From a bacterium (GTDB taxonomy: Bacteria; Patescibacteriota; Patescibacteriia; UBA1558; GWA2-36-10), in assembly GCA_018653315.1 (NCBI GenBank), contig JABIAL010000037.1, forward strand, positions 1,487 to 65,486: a stretch of DNA of 64,000 nucleotides, given 5' to 3'. Position numbers and translations under genes: made by a program. Positions 7,975 to 64,000 of the stretch are shown piece by piece. Below the pieces are notes generated by a model. The model had not been told where the DNA came from. It did not search any database and was given only the letters and a program-made list of their open reading frames with translations. How positions within the stretch are numbered: the first letter of the stretch is position 1; the number at the start of each line of letters is the position of its first letter.

Positions 7975-8008
7975 TTGCTTACAGAATGAAAACCATTGCT
8001 TACAGAAT
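7975..8008. repeat. 13-nt direct repeat TTGCTTACAGAAT x2 (7975-7987 and 7996-8008) at the 3' end of the GC-rich 186-aa ORF, just after the der stop
   Basis: Exact repeat read from the sequence. It is adjacent to an imperfect GC-rich hairpin (ggcccactctcaaagagggacc) at 7942-7963. Confidence 0.6.
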
Positions 8009-8560
8009 AGAAATTGAATCTAAAGGCAAGTAAATCTGTTGAGCAAAAGTAAATAGCGCAAACTGCTTAAGAAAGGTAAGATCAATCTCCAACTCCGAAA
8101 GTCCATCGAGGCTATCCGAATGACAGTAGCCCTGAATGTTTCCATCAACAGAGGTTTCCAAAAAACCAGCTTGCAGCAACATCATGATGTATGAGAGAGA
8201 GTCTAACACTCCTTGCTCTTCCTGAAAGACTAACCTCACACTGAAATTGTACTCTACAGCAAAATGCAACAAGGTAAAGACTTGATGTACGCCTGTACCT
8301 GTGAACTCTTCCACTAAGCTAACTTGTCTTAGCCACTTAGCAATATCTTGAGATACTGGATATTGGGTACACAGACCTGTTTGCAAAAAAATACCTAGCT
8401 CTTTAGCCGATAAATTATGCATCTTGTCAGCTTCTTCCTGATCAATCAACAGAACGATATTATCTGCTTGTGCTCTTAAACACCGCCAGCAAATACCCAT
8501 GTGCATCTTTTCATGTATAGAACACGCATCATCTGTCCATAAATGACTCATTAACTTCAT
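8000..8560 (-). CDS. Hypothetical protein of 186 aa. Its composition (about 40% GC by eye) is well above the flanking host genes. It has its own SD and a TTGACA promoter.
   Basis: A long ORF in an AT-rich background. An AGGAG lies 6 nt upstream of the ATG and a TTGACA -35 lies upstream (minus strand, plus coordinates ~8590-8637). No family was recognised by eye. A CxxC is present (GICWRCL). Confidence 0.5.
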   Translation of the reverse strand: MKLMSHLWTDDACSIHEKMHMGICWRCLRAQADNIVLLIDQEEADKMHNLSAKELGIFLQTGLCTQYPVSQDIAKWLRQVSLVEEFTGTGVHQVFTLLHFAVEYNFSVRLVFQEEQGVLDSLSYIMMLLQAGFLETSVDGNIQGYCHSDSLDGLSELEIDLTFLKQFALFTFAQQIYLPLDSISIL

Positions 8561-13150: not shown

Positions 13151-14941
13151 CTATTTTCTAACAAATATAGACCAATTATTTAAGTTATATACTTCCTGCC
13201 AATATTGCTCTGAAATCAAATCTTTTTGTATACGAAGTTCTACATCTTTACCTCCGTTAGGAAAATCATCATGCCAAAACCACAATAAATATTCGTCAAC
13301 ACCATATAGATCTGTATTGTGATACAGCAACATAGCATCTATCTGCCTTGGATAGCCCTTGTCTATGATCTCTATAAATTCTTCTGGATTATTAGCTGCG
13401 CTTAATTTTTCTATTTCTGCCATCCGAACATTATAATTAGCTGCATGATGACTAAAATGTACACTGTGAGTAATATAATATGATAATGGTAAATAAGCGC
13501 CAACTTCCATAGAACCGCTTGATAGCCAAGTTCTCTCAGCATTGTCTGGAACATTATTCTTTATAGCCTCTACTAATTGAGTTATTTTTTGCTGAGCGTG
13601 CAAATCTTGTTCTATTTGTCTAAGCACAACTGGATCATCCATGAAATACACAAAAGGCATTCTAGAGACTAATAAAAGGAAACCAAGTATTACTACTCCT
13701 CTTTTAAATTTTAGCTGCCACTGAGAAATATATTTTTTGTAAACATAAATTAATAAATAAGTTAAGCCAACTGCAATTGCTGCTGTACCTAAAAACCAAA
13801 AACCCTTAGATGCTTGAATTGGCTTATGTCCTAACAAAAACAAAAATTGATTAAAAAATTGATAAACAAAAGTCGATGCTAGTACAATTAAACTTGCTTT
13901 GACAAAACTTTTTTTGACAAAAAATATTAAAGCAGCCAAACCAAATACATACATAATAGACTGCAAAGACAAATGTTGCCAAGGTACGTAGCTAAAAAAA
14001 TCTTCTGGCACAAAATGTGTCGCCTGACCAGCCTCTAAGCCATATTTAAAATATGACAAAAGTAATGGCACGATAAATACAGATGCTATCAAACTAATAA
14101 TAAGACCAAATAATACCGTTCTTTTTATATTAAGCCATTTATCTTTAGCCAATAAAGCTAGGACAAAAATAGCTGGCACTAACATGACCCACCAAAAATA
14201 ATAAATCAAAAATAATAAACCACCAGTAACTCCTATGAATAAGTATTGTTTATAATTCCATTTTTTATTATTAAAACTCTTGGCTATAAATCCAATCAAA
14301 ATAACACTAAATAAAGCCGGTAAACATTCGTATGGTTTTAGCATAACAGAATCAAAGTCTAACATGGCTATATAGATCACAGGTAATAACCACCAAAACC
14401 AAGCAGACGATTCAATAGATTTGTCTTCCTCTCGACAACTCGGCTGAGCTCGCCGTAGCCTTCGCTCGAGATTTTCAACTTTTTTAACTAGACTTATTTT
14501 ATTCCAAAAATACTTTTGCCATAAATAAGAGCCCAGAAACCATAAAATAAGTGTCCCTGCAATTCCTGCCTTGGCTGCTACTATAGCATTAGAAGCAAAC
14601 GGCCTAGACAGTAACCCTGTTACCCAAAAATAAAGTGGCGGATAAAACTGAGGTAACCAATCATAATAAAAATCATGCCAAGGATTTCCTAATAAAACTT
14701 TACCGAGAAATCCTAAAACAAACAACTCATCGCCAACATTCCCCCACCACATAGTTTTTAACGGTAATGCCAAAACTAAATAAAAAGAAACAAAAACAAC
14801 CGTGGTTAGTAACATGAATACCCATGGTTGCTTTTTTTTATAAATAAAAAATATTATTAGAAATGTGTATAGAAAAAATATTATTTTTGACAAGGCCAAA
14901 ATGTTTAAAGTTTGCTGACTAATATCTAGAATCATAAACAA
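13151..14941 (-). CDS. Polytopic membrane protein, probably a GT-C fold glycosyltransferase (PMT/ArnT-like)
   Basis: 596 aa with ~12 predicted TM helices and a conserved-looking Asp/Glu in the first extracytoplasmic loop (WWGNVGDELFVLG). It contains an in-frame GC-rich repeat copy at 14438-14460. Confidence 0.45.
   Translation of the reverse strand: MFMILDISQQTLNILALSKIIFFLYTFLIIFFIYKKKQPWVFMLLTTVVFVSFYLVLALPLKTMWWGNVGDELFVLGFLGKVLLGNPWHDFYYDWLPQFYPPLYFWVTGLLSRPFASNAIVAAKAGIAGTLILWFLGSYLWQKYFWNKISLVKKVENLERRLRRAQPSCREEDKSIESSAWFWWLLPVIYIAMLDFDSVMLKPYECLPALFSVILIGFIAKSFNNKKWNYKQYLFIGVTGGLLFLIYYFWWVMLVPAIFVLALLAKDKWLNIKRTVLFGLIISLIASVFIVPLLLSYFKYGLEAGQATHFVPEDFFSYVPWQHLSLQSIMYVFGLAALIFFVKKSFVKASLIVLASTFVYQFFNQFLFLLGHKPIQASKGFWFLGTAAIAVGLTYLLIYVYKKYISQWQLKFKRGVVILGFLLLVSRMPFVYFMDDPVVLRQIEQDLHAQQKITQLVEAIKNNVPDNAERTWLSSGSMEVGAYLPLSYYITHSVHFSHHAANYNVRMAEIEKLSAANNPEEFIEIIDKGYPRQIDAMLLYHNTDLYGVDEYLLWFWHDDFPNGGKDVELRIQKDLISEQYWQEVYNLNNWSIFVRK
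14438..14460. repeat. GC-rich 23-nt repeat ACTCGGCTGAG[C/T]TCGCCGT[A/G]GCC, copy 1. It is in-frame inside the glycosyltransferase CDS and encodes ...RRAQPSC... The second copy is at 62353-62375.
   Basis: 21 of 23 positions are identical between the two loci. Both sit in an otherwise AT-rich window. Confidence 0.7.
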
Positions 14942-50009: not shown

Positions 50010-52955
50010 TTATTTCTTGTCCGCCTTTGGCGTGATTAATCCTAAAATAATCTCTTCACCATTAATCTTTTGAACCTTCTGTCTTTCTGGACTAGTATCT
50101 ACTTTTTCCAAAGATCCAGCTGAGGTGCTTTTTATAATTTCTTCTTTATACTTTTCTATTACAACTAATAAATTCTTTGATTCTGTTTGATAGGTCTCTA
50201 CTGGTTTATCTGCTGGTTTTAATCCTGATTCTTTACGTAAAACATTTATAAAACGAATCAACTCTCTTAATATTCCTTTTTCTTTTAAATCATCGGTTAA
50301 ATTGGTATCTAAAGATACTTTAAAATCATTTACTTCTGTAACAATCCAGCCATCAGCAGTTATCACATCATCTATTATCACTGACTCTACATTTAACTCA
50401 TCACTTAAAATATTCAAATAATCTTTATTTTTAGCTAAACCAGATTTATCCGCTACTTTTAAGGTAGACAAAGGCTGACGTACTTTGATGCCAGCTTCAG
50501 CTCGAGCAGCATGAACACTTTCAGCAATCTGACGAACCATATCCATTTTAGCTAAAACTTCTTGATCTATTAATTTCTGATCAGCTTTCATCCATTCTTC
50601 TAAATGAACAGATGTTTTATTATCAAACTCCTGCCAAATAATATCCGCTGTCATTGGTGTAAATGGAGCGATCAATTTAGCAAATTGTTTTAAGATGAAC
50701 GCCAAGGTCTCAATGGCTTGTTCCTTGTCTTTCAAATCATCACCTTTGAAACGATCACGACTACGTCTTAAGTACCAGGTAGATAGCTCATCAACAAAAT
50801 CAAATAAAGGACGAGTAGCTTTAACTAGATTATATTCTTTCATTGCTTCTGTCACCTCTTGATGCAATTTATAAAACTTAGCAACAATCCATTTATCTAA
50901 ATCATTATTTAATTTTGCTAATTTATCTCCGTCTATTTTAGCTTCACCTTTAAACATCTGATAAAAACTAAAAACATTTTGTAGTAAGCCAATAAAACGA
51001 CGATAAGTAGTCTGTAAATCTTTTTCTACAAAAGAAAGATTCTCAGCCAACATCACCGGAGAAGATAATAAGTACAAACGTAAGGCATCGGCGCCATATT
51101 TTTCCATTATGTCATTTGGATCTGGATAGTTTTGTAATTTCTTGGCCATTTTCTTACCATCTTCAGCTAAAACAATCCCATTAACAATAACATTATCAAA
51201 AGCTTGTGAACCTTTAATGGCGACAGCTAAAATATGCATGTAATAAAACCAAGCTCTAGTTTGATCTAAGCCTTCAGCAATAAATTTGGCTGGAAAGTTA
51301 TCATTAAACCTATCTTCGTTTTCAAATGGGTAATGCATTTGAGCATAAGGCATTGAACCAGAATCAAACCAAGTATCCAAAACATCCGGCACCCGTTTCA
51401 TAGTGCTGCCACCTGCCTGCCGGCAGGCAGGCATTGAACAAGCAAAGGTGATTTCATCAACTATATGTTTGTGTAAATCTGTTACTTTTTGACCGCTGGC
51501 TTTTTCTAAATCGGCAACCGATCCAAATACTACTTTTTCCTCACACTTATCACACTCCCAAATTGGCATCACGGAAGCCCAAAATCTTTGACGAGAAATC
51601 GACCAATCACGAGCTCCTTCTAGCCATTTTCCAAAACGGCCTTCTTTAATATGATCTGGAGTCCAATTTATATTCTTAGCGGTTTTTTGGGCCTTGTCTT
51701 TGACTTTAGTGACTGCTACAAACCAAGATGAAGTGGCATAATTCAATAATGGAGTTTCACAACGCCAACAATGAGGGTAGCTATGCTCATATTTTGTTTT
51801 ATCAAATAGCAAACCCTTAGCTGCTAAATATTTAATAATAGCTACGTCTGTAGATTGCACATCGTCTATTGGTTTGACGTGCAAACCCTTAAAATCTGTG
51901 ACTTCTTCTTTGATAATCCCATCCATGCCAAGATGTTGCACAAAAGGCAAATTTTTTTCTTTGCCTAATCTCATATCATCTTCACCAAAAGCAGGAGCGA
52001 TATGAACCACGCCCGTTCCTTCTTCAGTAGTCACAAAATCAGCCGTTACAATCTGCCAGCCATTATTTACATTTTCTGAATCTTTATCTTTAGAGTAATA
52101 ATCAAAAAGTGGCGTATATTTCTGAGCAATTAATTTCTTACCTTTAAATTCTTCGACGATTTTATACTCACCAAATTTATCTGCAAATTCTTCTAATAAT
52201 TCTTTGGCTAAGATAAATTTTTCTTTTTCTGATTCTACTTTTATGTAATCAATATTTTCTCCGACAGCCAAAGCAACATTACCAATCAAAGTCCAAGGAG
52301 TTGTCGTCCAAGCCAAAACATATGTGCCTGGCTCATCAACTAACTCAAACTTAGCAGTCAGTGATAAATCTTTAATATCTTTGTAGCCTTCAGAAACCTC
52401 TTGTTGAGATAAAGTAGTTTCACAACGAGGACAAATATGCATCGAGCGATAATCTTGATAAATCAAATCTTTATCCCAAAGCTCTTTGAATACCCACCAA
52501 ACAGATTCCATATATTCTAAATCCATCGTACGATAGGCATTTTTCATATCTGCCCAACGTCCCATGCGAGTGACAGTTTTCTCCCATTCAGCAACATAGC
52601 TCAAAACTTTTGAACGACAAAGTTCATTAAACTTAGCCACGCCCATTTCTTCAATCGCTTGTTTAGATTTGGAACCAAGTTCTTTTTCGACAATATTTTC
52701 CACTGGCAAACCATGACAATCCCAACCCCATTTTCTCTCCACTCTATATCCTTGCATAGTCCAAAAACGAGGGACCACGTCTTTCATGATATTACCTACT
52801 AAATGTCCATAATGCGGAGTTCCAGTAGCAAATGGAGGCCCATCATAAAAAAGATAATCACCATTAGGCGCTGGTTTATCTAAAGATTTCTGAAAAGTTT
52901 GATCACTTTCCCAAAAATCCAATATTTCTTTTTCCCGATCTTTGAAATTAGTCAT
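50010..52955 (-). CDS. ileS: Isoleucyl-tRNA synthetase
   Basis: HIGH variant (PHYGHLVGN), KMSKS variant (KMAKK), editing domain, 981 aa. It contains an in-frame copy of the 20-nt GC-rich palindrome at 51412-51431, encoding PACRQAG in a Cys knuckle. Confidence 0.95.
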   Translation of the reverse strand: MTNFKDREKEILDFWESDQTFQKSLDKPAPNGDYLFYDGPPFATGTPHYGHLVGNIMKDVVPRFWTMQGYRVERKWGWDCHGLPVENIVEKELGSKSKQAIEEMGVAKFNELCRSKVLSYVAEWEKTVTRMGRWADMKNAYRTMDLEYMESVWWVFKELWDKDLIYQDYRSMHICPRCETTLSQQEVSEGYKDIKDLSLTAKFELVDEPGTYVLAWTTTPWTLIGNVALAVGENIDYIKVESEKEKFILAKELLEEFADKFGEYKIVEEFKGKKLIAQKYTPLFDYYSKDKDSENVNNGWQIVTADFVTTEEGTGVVHIAPAFGEDDMRLGKEKNLPFVQHLGMDGIIKEEVTDFKGLHVKPIDDVQSTDVAIIKYLAAKGLLFDKTKYEHSYPHCWRCETPLLNYATSSWFVAVTKVKDKAQKTAKNINWTPDHIKEGRFGKWLEGARDWSISRQRFWASVMPIWECDKCEEKVVFGSVADLEKASGQKVTDLHKHIVDEITFACSMPACRQAGGSTMKRVPDVLDTWFDSGSMPYAQMHYPFENEDRFNDNFPAKFIAEGLDQTRAWFYYMHILAVAIKGSQAFDNVIVNGIVLAEDGKKMAKKLQNYPDPNDIMEKYGADALRLYLLSSPVMLAENLSFVEKDLQTTYRRFIGLLQNVFSFYQMFKGEAKIDGDKLAKLNNDLDKWIVAKFYKLHQEVTEAMKEYNLVKATRPLFDFVDELSTWYLRRSRDRFKGDDLKDKEQAIETLAFILKQFAKLIAPFTPMTADIIWQEFDNKTSVHLEEWMKADQKLIDQEVLAKMDMVRQIAESVHAARAEAGIKVRQPLSTLKVADKSGLAKNKDYLNILSDELNVESVIIDDVITADGWIVTEVNDFKVSLDTNLTDDLKEKGILRELIRFINVLRKESGLKPADKPVETYQTESKNLLVVIEKYKEEIIKSTSAGSLEKVDTSPERQKVQKINGEEIILGLITPKADKK
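51412..51431. repeat. Perfect 20-nt palindrome CCTGCCTGCCGGCAGGCAGG, copy 1, inside the ileS CDS
   Basis: Identical to the 54359-54378 copy and nearly identical to 53202-53222. Confidence 0.75.
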
Positions 52956-53201
52956 ATTTACAGTATTTCTGATTAATTAGTAAGATTTATTCTAGCCTAA
53001 AAGCATATATTTTACAATATTTACCTTTCGGCTACGCTCAAGGTGATTAAAAGTCAAAAAAATATGGAATATAAGCTATGCCACCAATTTTTTTTGGTCT
53101 TTTTACATAACCTGGGCTGGTAAACCCTATGTTTACACTTGGCTTTAACAAAAATTTTGTCTAGTTTCTTATGCATATTTTATTTAGCTTGTTGTTTACT
53201 C

Positions 53202-53222
53202 CCTGCCTACCGGACAGGCAGG
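53202..53222. repeat. Palindrome variant CCTGCCTACCGGACAGGCAGG, copy 2, intergenic at the ileS-proximal edge of the MerR cassette
   Basis: 7-bp arms identical to the other copies. It is followed by more GC-rich hairpins (GCCTTC-AGAGCC-GAAGGC at 53244-53261). Confidence 0.7.
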
Positions 53223-53280
53223 CGCCTCCCGTTCAGGGCCTAAGCCTTCAGAGCCGAAGGCTGACGGATAATATTTAAAA

Positions 53281-53319: not shown

Positions 53320-53574
53320 TTAAAACAATTGTTTAATCTCCTTAACAGATAATCTTTTTTTGCTTTGGAGATATTCTATTTTTTGTAGCGTGCGAATAGC
53401 TTTATCTGGACTATAAAGACGATAGCCGCCTTGAGTGCGCCCATCTTCTTTTAATAAACCTTCGCGAGTATAAAAATTAATAGCCGACGGCAAAACATCG
53501 AACATCGTCGCCAATGTACCGATTTTTACTAATTTGCTACTCGCTTGTTTGTTTCCAGTTTTTATTTTCCGCAT
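53320..53574 (-). CDS. Small MerR-family HTH DNA-binding protein (DNA-binding domain only, 84 aa)
   Basis: VKIGTLATMFDVLPSAINFYTREGLL...GGYRLYS matches the MerR HTH and wing pattern. No effector domain is present. Confidence 0.7.
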   Translation of the reverse strand: MRKIKTGNKQASSKLVKIGTLATMFDVLPSAINFYTREGLLKEDGRTQGGYRLYSPDKAIRTLQKIEYLQSKKRLSVKEIKQLF

Positions 53575-53727: not shown

Positions 53728-54159
53728 TTACTTAGGAACACCGCCAACCCAATAGCCACCAGGAACGCCTTCTTTGCTACGATCAGCAGCTATACGATGC
53801 TCACCGTTCTTGTTATGAAACGAGGCATAGCACCAATGCCCTACATCTTTCCAATGAACGCCATTAGGATGATCGTCAGCAAAATTAGGATCATTAATAT
53901 TAACTTGTATTTGAGCATAAGGATCGTGGATTAAACCATGCTCATTCAACACACCCTCCAACTCATCTTCACTACAGCGACCAACCACCTCGAGGAAAGC
54001 AACTCTGACAAACTCACCTTCGCCTCTAGGTATAGACCCAATAACGGCGTCGGATATACATTGTTGTTCTCGTCCAATAGACTTAAACAGTTGTTGTGGC
54101 GTCTTGTTACGATCTACGCGAACATCAACGTAGATCAAACCTTGATTTGTTGTTGGCAT
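53728..54159 (-). CDS. Hypothetical protein of 143 aa, His-rich. Composition is foreign (about 44% GC by eye). First gene of the 2-gene cassette, upstream of the MerR-like gene.
   Basis: Long ORF with an SD-like AAGGGG 7 nt upstream and a TTGACA-17-TATATT promoter. No family recognised (…DDHPNGVHWKDVGHWCYASFHNKNGEHRIA…). Confidence 0.5.
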   Translation of the reverse strand: MPTTNQGLIYVDVRVDRNKTPQQLFKSIGREQQCISDAVIGSIPRGEGEFVRVAFLEVVGRCSEDELEGVLNEHGLIHDPYAQIQVNINDPNFADDHPNGVHWKDVGHWCYASFHNKNGEHRIAADRSKEGVPGGYWVGGVPK

Positions 54160-54203: not shown

Positions 54204-54232
54204 GATGGATGTAACGAACCTAACAATATGGT

Positions 54233-54261
54233 AATATAGCATATATACGCTATTTTGTCAA
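54233..54261 (-). promoter_or_regulatory. Canonical sigma70 promoter TTGACA-17-TATATT (minus strand) driving the 143-aa / MerR-like cassette
   Basis: rc of 54256-54261 is TTGACA and rc of 54233-54238 is TATATT, with a 17-nt spacer. Confidence 0.5.
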
Positions 54262-54295: not shown

Positions 54296-54357
54296 TCCAG
54301 CCTCCCCTTAACAGGGGAGGTTTTTTAGATTAAAAAAGTCCCCCTGTTAAGGGGGAT
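54296..54357. terminator. Pair of mirrored GC-rich hairpins (CCTCCCC-TTAACA-GGGGAGG then TTTTTT, and TCCCCC-TGTTAA-GGGGGA preceded by AAAAAA), forming a bidirectional terminator
   Basis: The two stems are reverse complements of each other around an A/T-rich centre. They terminate the minus-strand 193-aa gene and insulate the cassette. Confidence 0.6.
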
Positions 54358-54358
54358 T

Positions 54359-54378
54359 CCTGCCTGCCGGCAGGCAGG
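54359..54378. repeat. Perfect 20-nt palindrome CCTGCCTGCCGGCAGGCAGG, copy 3, at the dprA-proximal edge of the cassette
   Basis: Identical to the ileS-internal copy. Confidence 0.75.
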
Positions 54379-54403
54379 CAGGGGGTTTAAATTTTAATTT
54401 AAC

Positions 54404-60140: not shown

Positions 60141-62342
60141 ATGCCAGATTTAATCATCGTTGAGTCCCCTACTAAAGCTAAAACTATTAAAGGTTTTTTA
60201 GGAAAGGACTATAAAGTAGAATCAAGTTTCGGCCATGTTCGTGACTTACCTAAAAGCAAATTAGGAGTAGATGTTGAAAATAACTTCGCTCCATCTTATG
60301 AGGTGCCTACTAAAGCAAAAAAACGAGTTAGTGAACTAAAAGCTTTAGCTAAAAAAGCTGACATAGTTTATTTCGCAACTGATGAAGATCGAGAAGGAGA
60401 AGCAATTAGCTGGCACTTACAAGAGCTACTAAATATTCCTGTGGAAAAACAACGCCGTATTGCTTTCCATGAAATTACTAAGAAGGCTATTTTGAATGCC
60501 TTGGAAAATCCTAGAAAACTAGATGACAACTTAGTTGATGCCCAACAAGCTCGCCGAGTTTTAGACAGATTAGTTGGTTATAAACTTTCTCCATTATTAT
60601 GGAAAAAAGTAACTAAAGGATTATCAGCCGGACGCGTACAATCTGCAGCCTTAAGATTGATTGTTGAACGTGAAGAAGAACGTAACAACTTTAAAAAAGA
60701 AGAATACTGGACAGTAGAAGGAGAGGCTGCCAAAGATAAGCCAAACTTTAAAATTTCCTTATGGCAAAAAGATAACAAATCTATCTCAAAATTTGATCTA
60801 GATGAAAAGCTTGCTAATCAAGCAGTCACGGATATTAAACCAGCAAAATTAATCATCAATAAAGTTGACGCTAAAGAACATACAAAGTCTCCTTTAGCTC
60901 CTTTTACTACATCTACTTTACAACAAGAAGCAAATAGACGTTTTGGCTATTCGGCTAAACAAACCATGATGGTAGCCCAACAACTATACGAGGGTTTAAG
61001 CTTAGGCGAAAAAGGAAACGCCGGTCTAATCACATACATGCGTACTGATTCCAAAAATTTGTCAGCTGAATTTGTCAGTGATGCTTTGGATTATGTAAAA
61101 AATAAATTAGGAGAAAAATATATTGTAGCTGGTGGTCGCACTTTTAAAAAGAAAAGTAAACTAGCTCAAGAAGCTCATGAGGCTATTCGACCAACTGATG
61201 TCCAACTAGTGCCAGAAGAAATCAAAGAACATTTAGATAGCAAACAATTCAAAGTTTATCAATTGATTTGGCAACGAGCCGTTGCTTCACAAATGTCAGA
61301 TGCCATTACTGAAACTACTAGTGTTGGCATTGAAGCCAAAGACACCATCTGGACTCTAAAAACCGTTGGCACAGTAACTAAATTTGCTGGTTGGCGAGCC
61401 GTTTACCAATCTAATGGTGAAGACAATGAATTACCGACTTTGGCTATTGGTGATGAGCTAGAACTGAAAACTCTAGATGCTTTACAACATTTTACTTCTC
61501 CTCCAGCCCAATATTCAGAAGCCGGATTAGTAAAAGAAATGGAAAAATTGGGCATTGGTCGCCCATCTACTTATGCGCCAACTATTGCAACTTTAGTTAG
61601 TCGCCAATATGTAGATAAAGTAGATAAAAGATTAGCACCAACTGAAATTGCTATTATTGTTATTAAATTATTAGTCGAACATTTTTCTGATATTGTTGAT
61701 TATAATTTTACTGCTGAAATGGAAGATGATTTAGATCGTATTGCTGACGGTAAAAAAACTTGGCAACCAATTATCAAAGAATTTTACGAACCTTTTATCA
61801 CTAACTTAGAAAAGAAAGAAAAAGAATTAGATAAGAAAAAAATCACCGAAACTGCTACCGATGAGAAATGTGAGAAATGTGATAGTCCAATGGTGATTAA
61901 ACTTGGTCGTTTTGGAAAATTTTTGGCTTGTTCGAACTACCCAGATTGCAAGAGCACTAAACCAATTAATGAAAAAGGTGAAATCGAAGAACCAGAAACA
62001 ACCGATGAAAAATGTGAAACTTGTGGGGCTGACATGATGTTTAAACATGGTCGCTTTGGAAAATTTTTGGCTTGCTCAAATTATCCAAAATGTAAAACAA
62101 CTAAACAAGTCAATAAAGAAGTTGGCATCAAATGTACAAAATGCGACAAAGGACAAATGGTAGAAAAACGTAGTAAGCGTGGCAAAACATTTTTCAGTTG
62201 TGACCAATATCCAAAATGTGAACATGCTGTTTGGACTAAACCAACTGGTGAATTCTGTCCGGAATGTAAACAACTTTTATTATTTGCTGCTAAAGATAAA
62301 GTAAAGTGTGAAGAATGTGACTTCACTAAAGACCAAGAATAA
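60141..62342 (+). CDS. topA: DNA topoisomerase I with three C-terminal C4 zinc ribbons
   Basis: TOPRIM (LIIVESPTKAK, DEDREGE), the catalytic Tyr region (GLITYMRTDS), and repeated CxxC...CxxC zinc fingers. Confidence 0.95.
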   Translation: MPDLIIVESPTKAKTIKGFLGKDYKVESSFGHVRDLPKSKLGVDVENNFAPSYEVPTKAKKRVSELKALAKKADIVYFATDEDREGEAISWHLQELLNIPVEKQRRIAFHEITKKAILNALENPRKLDDNLVDAQQARRVLDRLVGYKLSPLLWKKVTKGLSAGRVQSAALRLIVEREEERNNFKKEEYWTVEGEAAKDKPNFKISLWQKDNKSISKFDLDEKLANQAVTDIKPAKLIINKVDAKEHTKSPLAPFTTSTLQQEANRRFGYSAKQTMMVAQQLYEGLSLGEKGNAGLITYMRTDSKNLSAEFVSDALDYVKNKLGEKYIVAGGRTFKKKSKLAQEAHEAIRPTDVQLVPEEIKEHLDSKQFKVYQLIWQRAVASQMSDAITETTSVGIEAKDTIWTLKTVGTVTKFAGWRAVYQSNGEDNELPTLAIGDELELKTLDALQHFTSPPAQYSEAGLVKEMEKLGIGRPSTYAPTIATLVSRQYVDKVDKRLAPTEIAIIVIKLLVEHFSDIVDYNFTAEMEDDLDRIADGKKTWQPIIKEFYEPFITNLEKKEKELDKKKITETATDEKCEKCDSPMVIKLGRFGKFLACSNYPDCKSTKPINEKGEIEEPETTDEKCETCGADMMFKHGRFGKFLACSNYPKCKTTKQVNKEVGIKCTKCDKGQMVEKRSKRGKTFFSCDQYPKCEHAVWTKPTGEFCPECKQLLLFAAKDKVKCEECDFTKDQE

Positions 62343-62352
62343 CCCTTCGGCG

Positions 62353-62375
62353 ACTCGGCTGAGTTCGCCGTGGCC
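62353..62375. repeat. GC-rich 23-nt repeat ACTCGGCTGAGTTCGCCGTGGCC, copy 2. Intergenic, at the topA-proximal edge of the two-ORF cassette.
   Basis: Matches 14438-14460 at 21 of 23 positions. It is embedded in the hairpin CGGCGA...TCGCCG. Confidence 0.7.
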
Positions 62376-62410
62376 TGATGCTCGGGGTAAATAAATTTGA
62401 GTAAAAAAAG

Positions 62411-62441
62411 AAAGCCCTGTCTCACTGAGACGGGGCTTTTT
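62411..62441. terminator. Bidirectional intrinsic terminator AAAGCCCTGTCTC-ACT-GAGACGGGGCTTTTT shared by topA (+) and the cassette operon (-)
   Basis: 11-13 bp GC-rich stem with T/A runs on both sides. Confidence 0.75.
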
Positions 62442-62456
62442 CATTTCCTTGTGCCG

Positions 62457-62681
62457 TTATGGCACCCTCAATCCACTGACGGGAAGAGGCCAAGCAGGTT
62501 CACCCGGCATTCGAACGACCATGTGTTGAGTCACGGGCCTGAACTCGATACAAAAACCCACATTGCCATCTTCATCGATAACACTGGCACTACGACTAGC
62601 AAGGTCGCGCAACTGTTCTTGAGAACCCTGCTCCAGACAAAACCCGGAAGTCATCTGATCAACCCCTGAAGTGTAAGACAT
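62457..62681 (-). CDS. Hypothetical 74-aa protein (gene B of the GC-rich cassette): MSYTSGVDQMTSGFCLEQGSQEQLRDLASRSASVIDEDGNVGFCIEFRPV...
   Basis: ATG at 62681 with AAGGAA 6 nt upstream. Composition is about 50% GC by eye. The ORF track shows a longer frame but no better start. No family recognised. Confidence 0.45.
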   Translation of the reverse strand: MSYTSGVDQMTSGFCLEQGSQEQLRDLASRSASVIDEDGNVGFCIEFRPVTQHMVVRMPGEPAWPLPVSGLRVP

Positions 62682-62697
62682 GTGATTCCTTTCTATT

Positions 62698-62721
62698 CTG
62701 TGGTGAAAACTGTGGTGAAAA
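62698..62721. repeat. Tandem 12-nt direct repeat CTGTGGTGAAAA x2 (minus strand TTTTCACCACAG x2) between cassette genes A and B
   Basis: Perfect tandem copy immediately after the stop of gene A. Candidate protein-binding or translational-coupling element. Confidence 0.6.
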
Positions 62722-62952
62722 TCAGACTGGATAATCTGGGTCATCATCCGGAAAAGCCAACTGGTCGGCTTTGACTTCAGAGATACCTGAGGTAGGCGAA
62801 ACGAACAAATAGGTATTGTACGCTGTCTTACCAATTATTCGACCTTGTGATCCTTCATTCAACATCAACATGCCATACTTCATGGCCCAACTGGCTTGAG
62901 TATCAGGGCTACCCAACACTGCACTCTCTGACAATCTCAACATTTCTGTCAT
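62722..62952 (-). CDS. Hypothetical 76-aa protein (gene A of the GC-rich cassette): MTEMLRLSESAVLGSPDTQASWAMKYGMLMLNEGSQGRIIGKTAYNTYLFVSPTSGISEVKADQLAFPDDDPDYPV
   Basis: Strong SD GCAGGAGGAGTT immediately 5' of the ATG and a consensus promoter upstream. Composition is about 45% GC by eye. No family recognised. Confidence 0.5.
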   Translation of the reverse strand: MTEMLRLSESAVLGSPDTQASWAMKYGMLMLNEGSQGRIIGKTAYNTYLFVSPTSGISEVKADQLAFPDDDPDYPV

Positions 62953-62995
62953 AACTCCTCCTGCTTGTTAGTTGTAAGGTTCATTAATGTCTGCT

Positions 62996-63024
62996 ATATT
63001 AGCATAAAATGCTAAAAAAGTCAA
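62996..63024 (-). promoter_or_regulatory. Consensus sigma70 promoter TTGACT-17-TAATAT (minus strand) driving the cassette operon of genes A and B
   Basis: rc of 63019-63024 is TTGACT and rc of 62996-63001 is TAATAT, with a 17-nt spacer. The SD GGAGG lies at 62955-62960. Confidence 0.55.
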
Positions 63025-63090
63025 GAGGCATGTTATTTTCTTGCTATTTTCTAAGGAAAACATTAAAATAAACATACTCATAATAATTCT

Positions 63091-64000
63091 ATGATTACTT
63101 TTGAAGATTTAAAAAAAGTCCTATTAACCGATTATGCTGATGAAAATATAAATATTATCATCAAGGCTTTTCATTTTGCCTCAGAAGCTCATCGTGGCCA
63201 AAAACGTCGTACTGGTGAAGATTATATCTACCACTCTATTGCTACTGCTCACACCTTGGCTAAGATGAAAATGGACGTGCCAACTATTGCCGCTGGTTTA
63301 TTACATGATGTACCAGAAGATACAGATTTTACTCTAGAAGATGTTAAAAATGTTTTTGGTAAAGAAATAGCCGGTTTAGTAAAAGGCATTACAAAATTAA
63401 GTACTCTTAAATATCGTGGCCTAGAACGTTATGCTGAAAATTTACGCAAAATGTTTTTGGCTATGTCCAAAGACTTACGAGTAATTATTATAAAACTAGC
63501 CGACCGTCTGCATAACATGCAGACTCTAGAAGGTGTTCGTCCGGAAAAACGTTTGCGTATTGCTCAAGAAACTTTAGAAATATTTGCACCGATTGCCAAT
63601 CGCTTAGGCATGTTTGAAATAAAAACTAAACTAGAAGATTTAGCTTTTATTTATGTTTATCCTGACGAATATAATTGGGTAAAAAATTTAGTTCAAGACC
63701 GTTTGAAAACTGAAACTAAATACATTGAAAAAATTAAAAAAATAGCCCAACGAGATTTAGCCAAACATAATGTAAGTTACATTCAAATAAGAGGACGAAT
63801 AAAAAGCTTATATAGTTTATACCACAAATTGTTACGCAAAGGAAAAGATCTAAATAAAGTATATGATTTAATTGCCTTGCGTATTATTGTGCCAGATGTA
63901 ACGGATTGTTATAGTGTCTTAGGCATCATTCATAAACGCTGGACGCCCCTCAAGGGACGAGTTAAAGATTATATTGCTCAACCAAAACCAAATGGCTATC
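63091..64000 (+). CDS. rel: Bifunctional (p)ppGpp synthetase/hydrolase Rel (RelA/SpoT homologue). 5' portion only, continuing beyond the window.
   Basis: HD hydrolase domain (HRGQKRRTGEDYIYH...LLHDVPEDT) followed by the start of the synthetase domain (DLIALRIIV...RVKDYIAQPKPNGY). Confidence 0.9.
   Translation, partial: MITFEDLKKVLLTDYADENINIIIKAFHFASEAHRGQKRRTGEDYIYHSIATAHTLAKMKMDVPTIAAGLLHDVPEDTDFTLEDVKNVFGKEIAGLVKGITKLSTLKYRGLERYAENLRKMFLAMSKDLRVIIIKLADRLHNMQTLEGVRPEKRLRIAQETLEIFAPIANRLGMFEIKTKLEDLAFIYVYPDEYNWVKNLVQDRLKTETKYIEKIKKIAQRDLAKHNVSYIQIRGRIKSLYSLYHKLLRKGKDLNKVYDLIALRIIVPDVTDCYSVLGIIHKRWTPLKGRVKDYIAQPKPNGY

Follow-up and report, generated by a model that had tools for sequence, protein, structure and literature searches.

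The genes topA and rel of an uncultured low-GC marine bacterium are separated by a segment rich in guanine plus cytosine (GC) that carries two small open reading frames (ORFs), here named A and B. The segment lies in a 64,000-nucleotide (nt) stretch of contig JABIAL010000037.1 (positions 1,487 to 65,486), and this whole stretch is referred to as the window. The initial annotation took the segment for an operon inserted between the two genes and likened it to toxin-antitoxin, abortive-infection or phage-derived regulatory pairs. Is it a recent acquisition of this kind, or has it long resided at this site, and what do A and B represent? One part of the earlier interpretation stood: the locus is a genuine bicistronic operon on the minus strand. 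The insertion and the toxin-antitoxin or phage origin did not. A and B are both protein-coding, their frames are held by selection, and the arrangement recurs in four lineages. With somewhat less than even confidence, we favor the view that this is a clade-restricted orphan operon, inherited vertically between rel and topA, and that A and B form a cognate pair of small proteins. At present, the locus is an uncharacterized orphan operon with an interesting evolutionary signature.

The A-B operon and its position in four lineages

The stop codon of topA ends at 62342 and the ATG of rel is at 63091, which leaves a gap of 748 nt instead of the 720 bp given originally. Within this gap, the A-B operon extends over positions 62404 to 63024 of the minus strand and comprises a promoter of its own, two ribosome-binding sites, the two genes and a terminator. 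The features of the gap are listed below in the direction of A-B transcription, with protein lengths in amino acids (aa).

62996 to 63024, minus strand: sigma-70-type promoter identified by consensus scan, with the -35 hexamer TTGACT at 63024 to 63019, a 17-nt spacer and the TG-extended -10 hexamer TAATAT at 63001 to 62996
62957 to 62962, minus strand: Shine-Dalgarno sequence of gene A, AGGAGG, 4 nt 5' of the ATG, read from the sequence
62722 to 62952, minus strand: gene A, ORF of 76 aa
62698 to 62721, minus strand: exact tandem 12-nt repeat in the A-B spacer, TTTTCACCACAG twice on the coding strand, equal to CTGTGGTGAAAA twice on the plus strand
62687 to 62692, minus strand: Shine-Dalgarno sequence of gene B, AAAGGA, 5 nt 5' of the ATG, read from the sequence
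62457 to 62681, minus strand: gene B, 74 aa, beginning at an internal ATG of a 125-aa ORF
62404 to 62446, both strands: two-way intrinsic terminator common to the convergent topA and A-B transcripts, an inverted repeat with a 15-bp stem and T-runs on each strand
62343 to 62387, no strand assigned: GC-rich hairpin element of 45 nt, directly 3' of the topA stop and outside the operon

The promoter described originally as TTGACT-17-TAATAT, with a TG before the -10, the Shine-Dalgarno sequence (noted then as GGAGG), both genes and the 39-nt spacer with its two 12-nt copies were all located. The same applies to the bidirectional terminator, whose hairpin has a folding z score of -3.6.

Exact or near matches to A and B were found only on contigs with the same gene neighborhood. 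Apart from the window lineage, they belong to the following lineages.

L003 lineage (L001 to L007 and others): A of 97 aa, missed by gene callers; B 81% identical to window B
L016 lineage (L016 and L017): A of 113 aa; B of 100 aa
L022 lineage (L022 and L025): A of 106 aa; B of 98 aa

It had been proposed to look for the operon between topA and rel in related genomes, and the order rel, A-B, topA proved identical in all four lineages, including that of the window, in many independent assemblies. These lineages are congeneric yet distant at silent sites. Between lineages, synonymous divergence (dS) of rel and topA was 1.1 to 1.7, which is saturated, at a nonsynonymous divergence (dN) of 0.04 to 0.08. 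Because the operon holds an identical position in four lineages with saturated dS, it must be old and passed down in place. A mis-assembly or contaminant join had been raised as a possible objection. Positions 62200 to 63200 were recovered in eight independent contigs, differing by 1 to 5 single-nucleotide polymorphisms each, and all of them carry both junctions. The recurrence of the arrangement in independent assemblies and in four lineages indicates neither a mis-assembly nor a recent insertion. Judged from these alignments, the A-B operon is evidently not a recent horizontal insertion.

The expression signals have been maintained as well. The -35 hexamer is invariant in four of four lineages, the TG-TAA core of the -10 is kept, and CAGGAGG, the Shine-Dalgarno sequence of gene A, is likewise unchanged in all four. 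That of gene B reads AAAGGG in the L003 lineage and corresponds to equivalent purine-rich sites in L016 and L022. The terminator is 95 to 97% identical in the L003 lineage, and an equivalent hairpin is present in L016. The description of the operon as inserted is contradicted by the same site, promoter and ribosome-binding site being found in four lineages that are saturated at synonymous sites. The tandem repeat of the A-B spacer, the RNA of which is unstructured, persists in diverged form in L003 (TTTTCATCACAG TTTTTAACACAG) and is missing from L016 and L022, where 3 and 19 nt, respectively, separate the A stop from the B start. Limited to two of the four lineages, it cannot belong to a general mechanism, and we no longer regard it as a general regulatory site. 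The palindrome TAGCAT-TTT-ATGCTA in the promoter spacer, the only one at the promoter, does not occur in L016 and L022. It also varies among sequences of the window lineage, which makes a role as an operator improbable.

The locus runs in the order M23 peptidase, parA, parB, a pilin-like gene, rel (divergent), A, B, convergent topA, folC and dprA. The Pfam content of the flanks confirmed rel (HD_4, RelA_SpoT and TGS) and topA (Toprim, Topoisom_bac and Zn_ribbon_Top1). No mobility, phage, integration, secretion or defense genes were present among these neighbors. On the 5' side of the A-B -35 hexamer, the box AAAATAGCAAGA (63041 to 63069, plus strand) is kept in all four lineages, and its opposite strand corresponds to the predicted -35 (TTGCTA) of a divergent rel promoter. 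The rel and A-B promoters, which by this prediction lie back-to-back within about 45 nt, could be co-regulated. A separate observation concerns L016 (positions 1553 to 1561), in which A and B share one frame with only TAG TTC between them, so that read-through of a single stop would fuse them. This potential is probably incidental because A and B occupy different frames in the window as well as in L022.

Coding signal and properties of A and B

A and B are both protein-coding, and selection holds their frames. The frame was kept open in just 0.3 to 1% of shuffles for each A ORF and in 0.3 to 3% for each B ORF, and the A sequences of the lineages are nearly independent at the DNA level, with frames nonetheless open. 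Between L016 and L022, differences at codon positions 1, 2 and 3 numbered 49/35/66 for A and 29/21/43 for B; for B of the window and L003, they numbered 9/6/16. The proportion of nonsynonymous differences (pN) was lower than that of synonymous differences (pS) throughout, with 0.38 versus 0.73 for A and 0.24 versus 0.61 for B. The absence of a coding signal from comparative alignments had been named as grounds for dismissing both genes, and the alignments displayed open frames, a third-position excess and pN < pS.

These data bear on the suggestion that the GC-rich segment is a structured noncoding RNA, or an assembly or contaminant join, with accidental ORFs. GC islands in AT-rich genomes are frequently structured RNAs, and an antisense ORF of 90 aa opposite B is open in the lineages. 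However, substitutions in the latter follow the sense frame and not the antisense frame, for which reason it was dismissed as a gene. At gathering score, Rfam yielded no match in the whole window, and only terminator-like subthreshold matches were obtained in 62200 to 63200 (E ≤ 10); ARAGORN found no tRNA or tmRNA. The 593-nt window transcript folded at about the level of shuffled sequences on either strand (z = -0.18 for sense and -0.51 for antisense), whereas z = -3.2 for the L016 transcript came from 20 shuffles only. Considering these values, the null results from Rfam and ARAGORN, the ORFs kept in four lineages and the junctions seen in eight contigs, we rejected a structured RNA at this locus, and the noncoding or artifact explanation is very improbable and effectively refuted.

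The N-terminal half of protein B is variable, whereas its C terminus carries the conserved motif G(F/M)C(I/L)EF(R/K)P....M...(MP/VS)(G/D)EP(A/D)WP(L/I)P...LR. This beta motif of about 30 residues is shared by all orthologues, including those that are, unlike the 81% identical L003 protein, only 30 to 35% identical. The ratio of dN to dS (omega) was about 0.27 for the window and L003 pair and about 0.23 for L016 and L022. In these two pairs, dN of B was 0.10 and 0.28, compared to 0.038 and 0.069 for rel. An AF2 model of B, with a predicted local distance difference test (pLDDT) value of 60, contains a helix and four strands and found no significant fold match in structure searches. Several leads concerning B were discarded. 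Its distant matches P0005/L018, L023 and L024 are translated GC-rich hairpin repeats of unrelated genomes. HeH/SAP-like N termini in L016 and L022 were a by-eye impression to which Pfam lends no support. Descent of A and B from a tandem duplication was considered in view of their similar predicted secondary structures and abandoned at an hhalign probability of 0.5%.

Protein A of the window is acidic (isoelectric point [pI] 4.2) and predicted to comprise a helix and four beta strands; 19 contigs encode the identical protein. Between the window and L003 lineages, DNA identity falls to random precisely from the conserved ATG to the spacer repeat, and the first DNA alignment was read as a replacement of the A cassette in the L003 lineage. 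This reading was overturned by the L016 and L022 proteins, which bridge the family. Window A matches L016 A with an E value of 1e-3, L003 A matches L016 A with 8e-6, and the L016 and L022 proteins are 41% identical. Because L016 A connects the window and L003 proteins, A represents one family, with four very fast-evolving members of 76 to 113 aa that share the core G..G...G.......F.S...G. From the alignments, A appears to evolve at a roughly near-neutral rate: dN was 0.53 between L016 and L022, where that of rel was 0.069, and the window and L003 proteins are not alignable. In the AF2 model of A (pLDDT 62), a helix at the N terminus precedes four or five short beta strands. With this model, Foldseek returned Hfq chains as best matches, followed by Tudor, SH3 and PWWP, all of them weak (E ≥ 0.04, TM score about 0.45). 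The modeled helix and short strands as well as these matches recall small beta-barrels of the Hfq/Sm, SH3, Tudor and KOW types. In contrast to those, A has no Pfam Hfq/LSM match and no Sm2 or YKHA-type motif in its sequence, and the resemblance would be one at the fold level only. A protein that changes as fast as A would hardly fit the role of a conserved core RNA chaperone.

Such a rate might also be expected if A mattered chiefly as a translated upstream frame, which would couple the translation of B or shield its mRNA. The product of A would then have little function that depends on its sequence, and B would be the sole functional protein. Despite the near-neutral rate, the start signals of A and an end close to B are kept everywhere, and gene callers skip A on L003-lineage contigs. 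We consider this improbable, though, given that A retains a core motif, that its members from different lineages are significantly similar in pairwise comparisons, that its codon-position differences of 49/35/66 and pN < pS between L016 and L022 are those of a coding sequence, and that B possesses a ribosome-binding site of its own. Furthermore, 76 to 113 codons far exceed the need of a coupling ORF.

The initial annotation stated that neither protein resembled anything recognized, and database searches bore this out. With eight A and B proteins as queries, Pfam, NCBIfam and PADLOC returned nothing at E ≤ 10, and PHROGs returned only noise (E ≥ 0.099). The domain libraries were also run on the extended 125-aa ORF and the antisense 90-aa ORF; matches to RelB (E = 0.23, antisense ORF) and Fur_reg_FbpA (E = 0.063) were set aside as noise. 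Profile searches of the PDB with A and B came back empty. When 1.84 billion representatives were searched exhaustively by HMMER with the B profile, only this clade and two hairpin-repeat artifacts were recovered; word-index searches with A and B, which covered 5.8 billion proteins, recovered the four lineages only. No copy of A or B was detected by tblastn in 50,697 phage records, no A-B copy in 72,556 plasmids, no match to the B alignment in IMG/VR and no paralogue of either gene elsewhere in the window. Both proteins are low in hydropathy (grand average of -1.2 to 0.05), and inspection revealed no obvious signal peptide or membrane segment.

A range of four lineages combined with coding selection makes A and B taxonomically restricted (orphan) genes. 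Like other orphan small-protein genes, they are short and fast-evolving (A near-neutral, B with an omega of about 0.25) and have no outside homologues or domains. They differ from such genes in expression signals that are unusually strong and conserved, in a pairing that is kept across lineages, and in GC content, overall and at third codon positions (GC3), that is far above that of the host despite saturated synonymous divergence. The high GC content is the opposite of what would be expected of genes arising from AT-rich intergenic DNA.

Base composition, divergence and the nature of the pair

In 200-nt windows, the GC fraction was 0.445 to 0.50 at 62300 to 62800 compared to about 0.28 to 0.40 in the flanks. 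A finer scan in 50-nt steps reached 0.54 in the A-B island, at a window mean of 0.339 and a standard deviation of 0.046. These values agree with the enrichment of about 45 to 50% that had been estimated by eye, and the A-B segment is the longest and highest GC island within the 64 kb. GC content of the operon is elevated at codon positions 1, 2 and 3 in every lineage. GC3 of A and B ranged from 0.38 to 0.50 in four of four lineages, whereas the other 52 ORFs of the window covered 0.16 to 0.39, with a mean of 0.24 when averaged over the 41 ATG-started window ORFs of at least 150 aa. Translational selection was rejected as the cause because genes presumed to be highly expressed are low in GC3, with 0.18 for ATP synthase beta and 0.28 for the ribosomal protein L11. 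With saturated silent sites and a near-neutral A, the composition of the operon should have drifted to the host level, and it has not. It is possible that GC3 is kept up by biased gene conversion at a recombining locus, by mRNA selection or by repeated import.

Evolutionary change in A, and in the N-terminal half of B, is several-fold to over 10-fold faster than in the neighboring housekeeping proteins. The operon occurs in two types, one combining a short A with a short acidic B and the other a long A with a long basic B. Between the window and L003 lineages, dS of topA was 1.3 to 2.1 in the 5' two-thirds of the gene and 0.42 in its last 59 codons (62149 to 62342). Gene B, which adjoins this low-dS end, had a dS of 0.37. 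RNA-level constraint was dismissed as the cause of the low value in B since the same dip is found in the neighboring topA 3' end. Local recombination or a low-divergence tract is the simpler reading for both, and the alignment suggests a recombination tract, or a locally lower substitution rate, that would span the topA 3' end, the terminator and gene B.

According to the reading that we favor, the promoter, strong and constitutive, and a ribosome-binding site for each gene would drive the synthesis of two small soluble proteins that may act jointly as cognate partners. Through its conserved C-terminal module, B would contact a target or partner that is conserved in the cell, and A, a putative small beta-barrel protein, would be a rapidly coevolving partner or modulator. 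This would amount to a toxin-antitoxin-like or "conflict-type" logic outside every known toxin-antitoxin, defense or phage family. Several observations weigh against it. Simple vertical inheritance does not predict the lasting GC3 of 0.38 to 0.50 in a genome with 0.16 to 0.39. The two operon types have diverged in A and B to a dN of about 0.8, which is above the prediction from rel distances, an excess that makes allele import or an old polymorphism possible. B is acidic in some lineages and basic in others (pI of 4.6 to 5.1 versus 9.8 to 10.2), a reversal of net charge that argues against a single, simple conserved electrostatic mechanism. The AF2 models are of low confidence, with a pLDDT of 62 for A and 60 for B. 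Finally, we infer the contact between A and B, and the partner mechanism is drawn from the layout of the genes only.

The layout itself is that of a classical type II toxin-antitoxin or abortive-infection module, that is, a horizontally acquired toxin with a neutralizing, promoter-autoregulating partner. Two small adjoining genes are co-transcribed in all four lineages with spacers of 3 to 39 nt, from a strong promoter of their own, and their composition is atypical of the host. The upstream gene A is the faster evolving of the two, as antitoxins in type II systems often are, and A or B of L016 and L022 shows an acidic/basic contrast. In E. coli, mazEF adjoins relA, which we take as a lead only. 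Beyond the pairing of the genes, however, the hallmarks of type II systems that were examined were missing: a recognized superfamily, a DNA-binding antitoxin fold, a conserved palindromic operator and patchy mobility. None of the eight proteins matched a toxin, antitoxin or defense profile at E ≤ 10, including the anti-phage defense and abortive-infection families in PADLOC. The sole promoter palindrome is polymorphic in one lineage and missing in others, and A and B of the window are both acidic. Unlike type II operons, A-B is vertically inherited at one site and confined to one clade. It is fixed, not patchy, in four lineages with saturated dS and has no homologue elsewhere among 1.84 to 5.8 billion proteins, phages, plasmids or, for B, IMG/VR. 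The toxin-antitoxin, abortive-infection or phage origin put forward initially was not supported, and we regard it as unlikely. We rate as equally unlikely an arms race, in which the A-B products face a fast-changing external partner (for example a phage, host cell or competitor), divergent alleles are swapped by homologous recombination via the conserved flanks, and GC richness is maintained by GC-biased gene conversion or repeated import. Such a race would agree with an A that is unalignable between lineages although Rel is 94% identical and identity amounts to 82 to 97% across promoter, ribosome-binding site, spacer repeat and B. It would also agree with two operon types that have diverged beyond rel distances, with the low-divergence tract (dS of 0.42 in the topA end and 0.37 in B) and with GC3 that has not ameliorated. 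On the other hand, the proteins have no obvious secretion signal and the locus has no secretion or defense neighbors. Only four alleles are known, the sampled contigs are free of within-lineage polymorphism, and no donor pool was found. Moreover, with saturated dS, an omega of about 1 suffices to render A unalignable, and positive selection is unnecessary.

More doubtful still than either of these is an undescribed conflict or specificity module. It would consist of a strongly expressed pair in which sister species exchange or diversify their A alleles via the conserved flanks. The two operon types would be an old polymorphism, and GC content would be actively upheld by biased gene conversion or mRNA selection. 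The module might serve self/nonself discrimination, addiction or phage/host interaction in a marine, probably reduced-genome lineage. If the cognate pair that we favor is functional, it would constitute a new family of small bicistronic "conflict" modules that are inherited in place, from a poorly known uncultured lineage. Independently of function, the operon provides a clean natural case of reading frames surviving near-complete sequence turnover. The pair also holds its GC3 at roughly double the level of the genome in spite of saturated divergence, a case of relevance to bacterial amelioration and GC-biased gene conversion.

GC-rich hairpins and further atypical genes in the window

The 45-nt element next to the topA stop (62343 to 62387) is present in every contig of the window lineage and missing from the L003 lineage, in which topA continues directly to the terminator. 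By this comparison, it is apparently the sole lineage-specific insertion at the locus. It folds as a modest hairpin, with z of -1.6 to -2.0. The initial annotation had pointed out a 23-nt GC-rich repeat at the topA-proximal end with a second copy at 14438 to 14460. This repeat is real: positions 62353 to 62375 share 21 of 23 bases with that site, which lies in-frame within a 596-aa membrane protein ORF. The copy in the membrane protein (14430 to 14470) sits in a loop and encodes ..LERRLRRAQPSCREE...

A second GC-rich, perfect palindrome, CCTGCCTGCCGGCAGGCAGG, was found in two exact copies, at 51412 to 51434 and 54356 to 54381, where none would be expected by chance. Of these two, one is intergenic and one lies in-frame within the gene for a 981-aa isoleucyl-tRNA synthetase, to which it contributes the residues ..PACRQAGGS.. 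of the protein. A further, degenerate copy is located at 53200 to 53232. The palindrome has the appearance of a short palindromic insertion element that can be accommodated at coding positions. Rickettsia palindromic elements are short palindromic insertions of 100 to 150 nt that occur in-frame within genes. The GC-rich hairpin repeats of the window resemble them in occupying both intergenic and in-frame positions of an AT-rich genome. They differ in length (about 20 to 45 nt), in having no sequence relation and in numbering two or three copies per 64 kb.

Two other genes of the window stand out by composition. An ORF of 186 aa at 8000 to 8560 (minus strand), starting MKLMSHLWTDDACSIHEKMHMGICW, comes next in the window by GC3 (0.39 versus the mean of 0.24) and may be another atypical or acquired gene. 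A gene of 143 aa at 53728 to 54159 (minus strand), without obvious annotation, has an atypical GC content of 0.44, GC of 0.61 at first codon positions and hairpins on its flanks. Its promoter at about 54230 to 54260, TTGACA-17-TATATT with a TG-extended -10, resembles that of A-B. Downstream of this gene, an 84-aa ORF at 53320 to 53574 appears MerR-like by eye.

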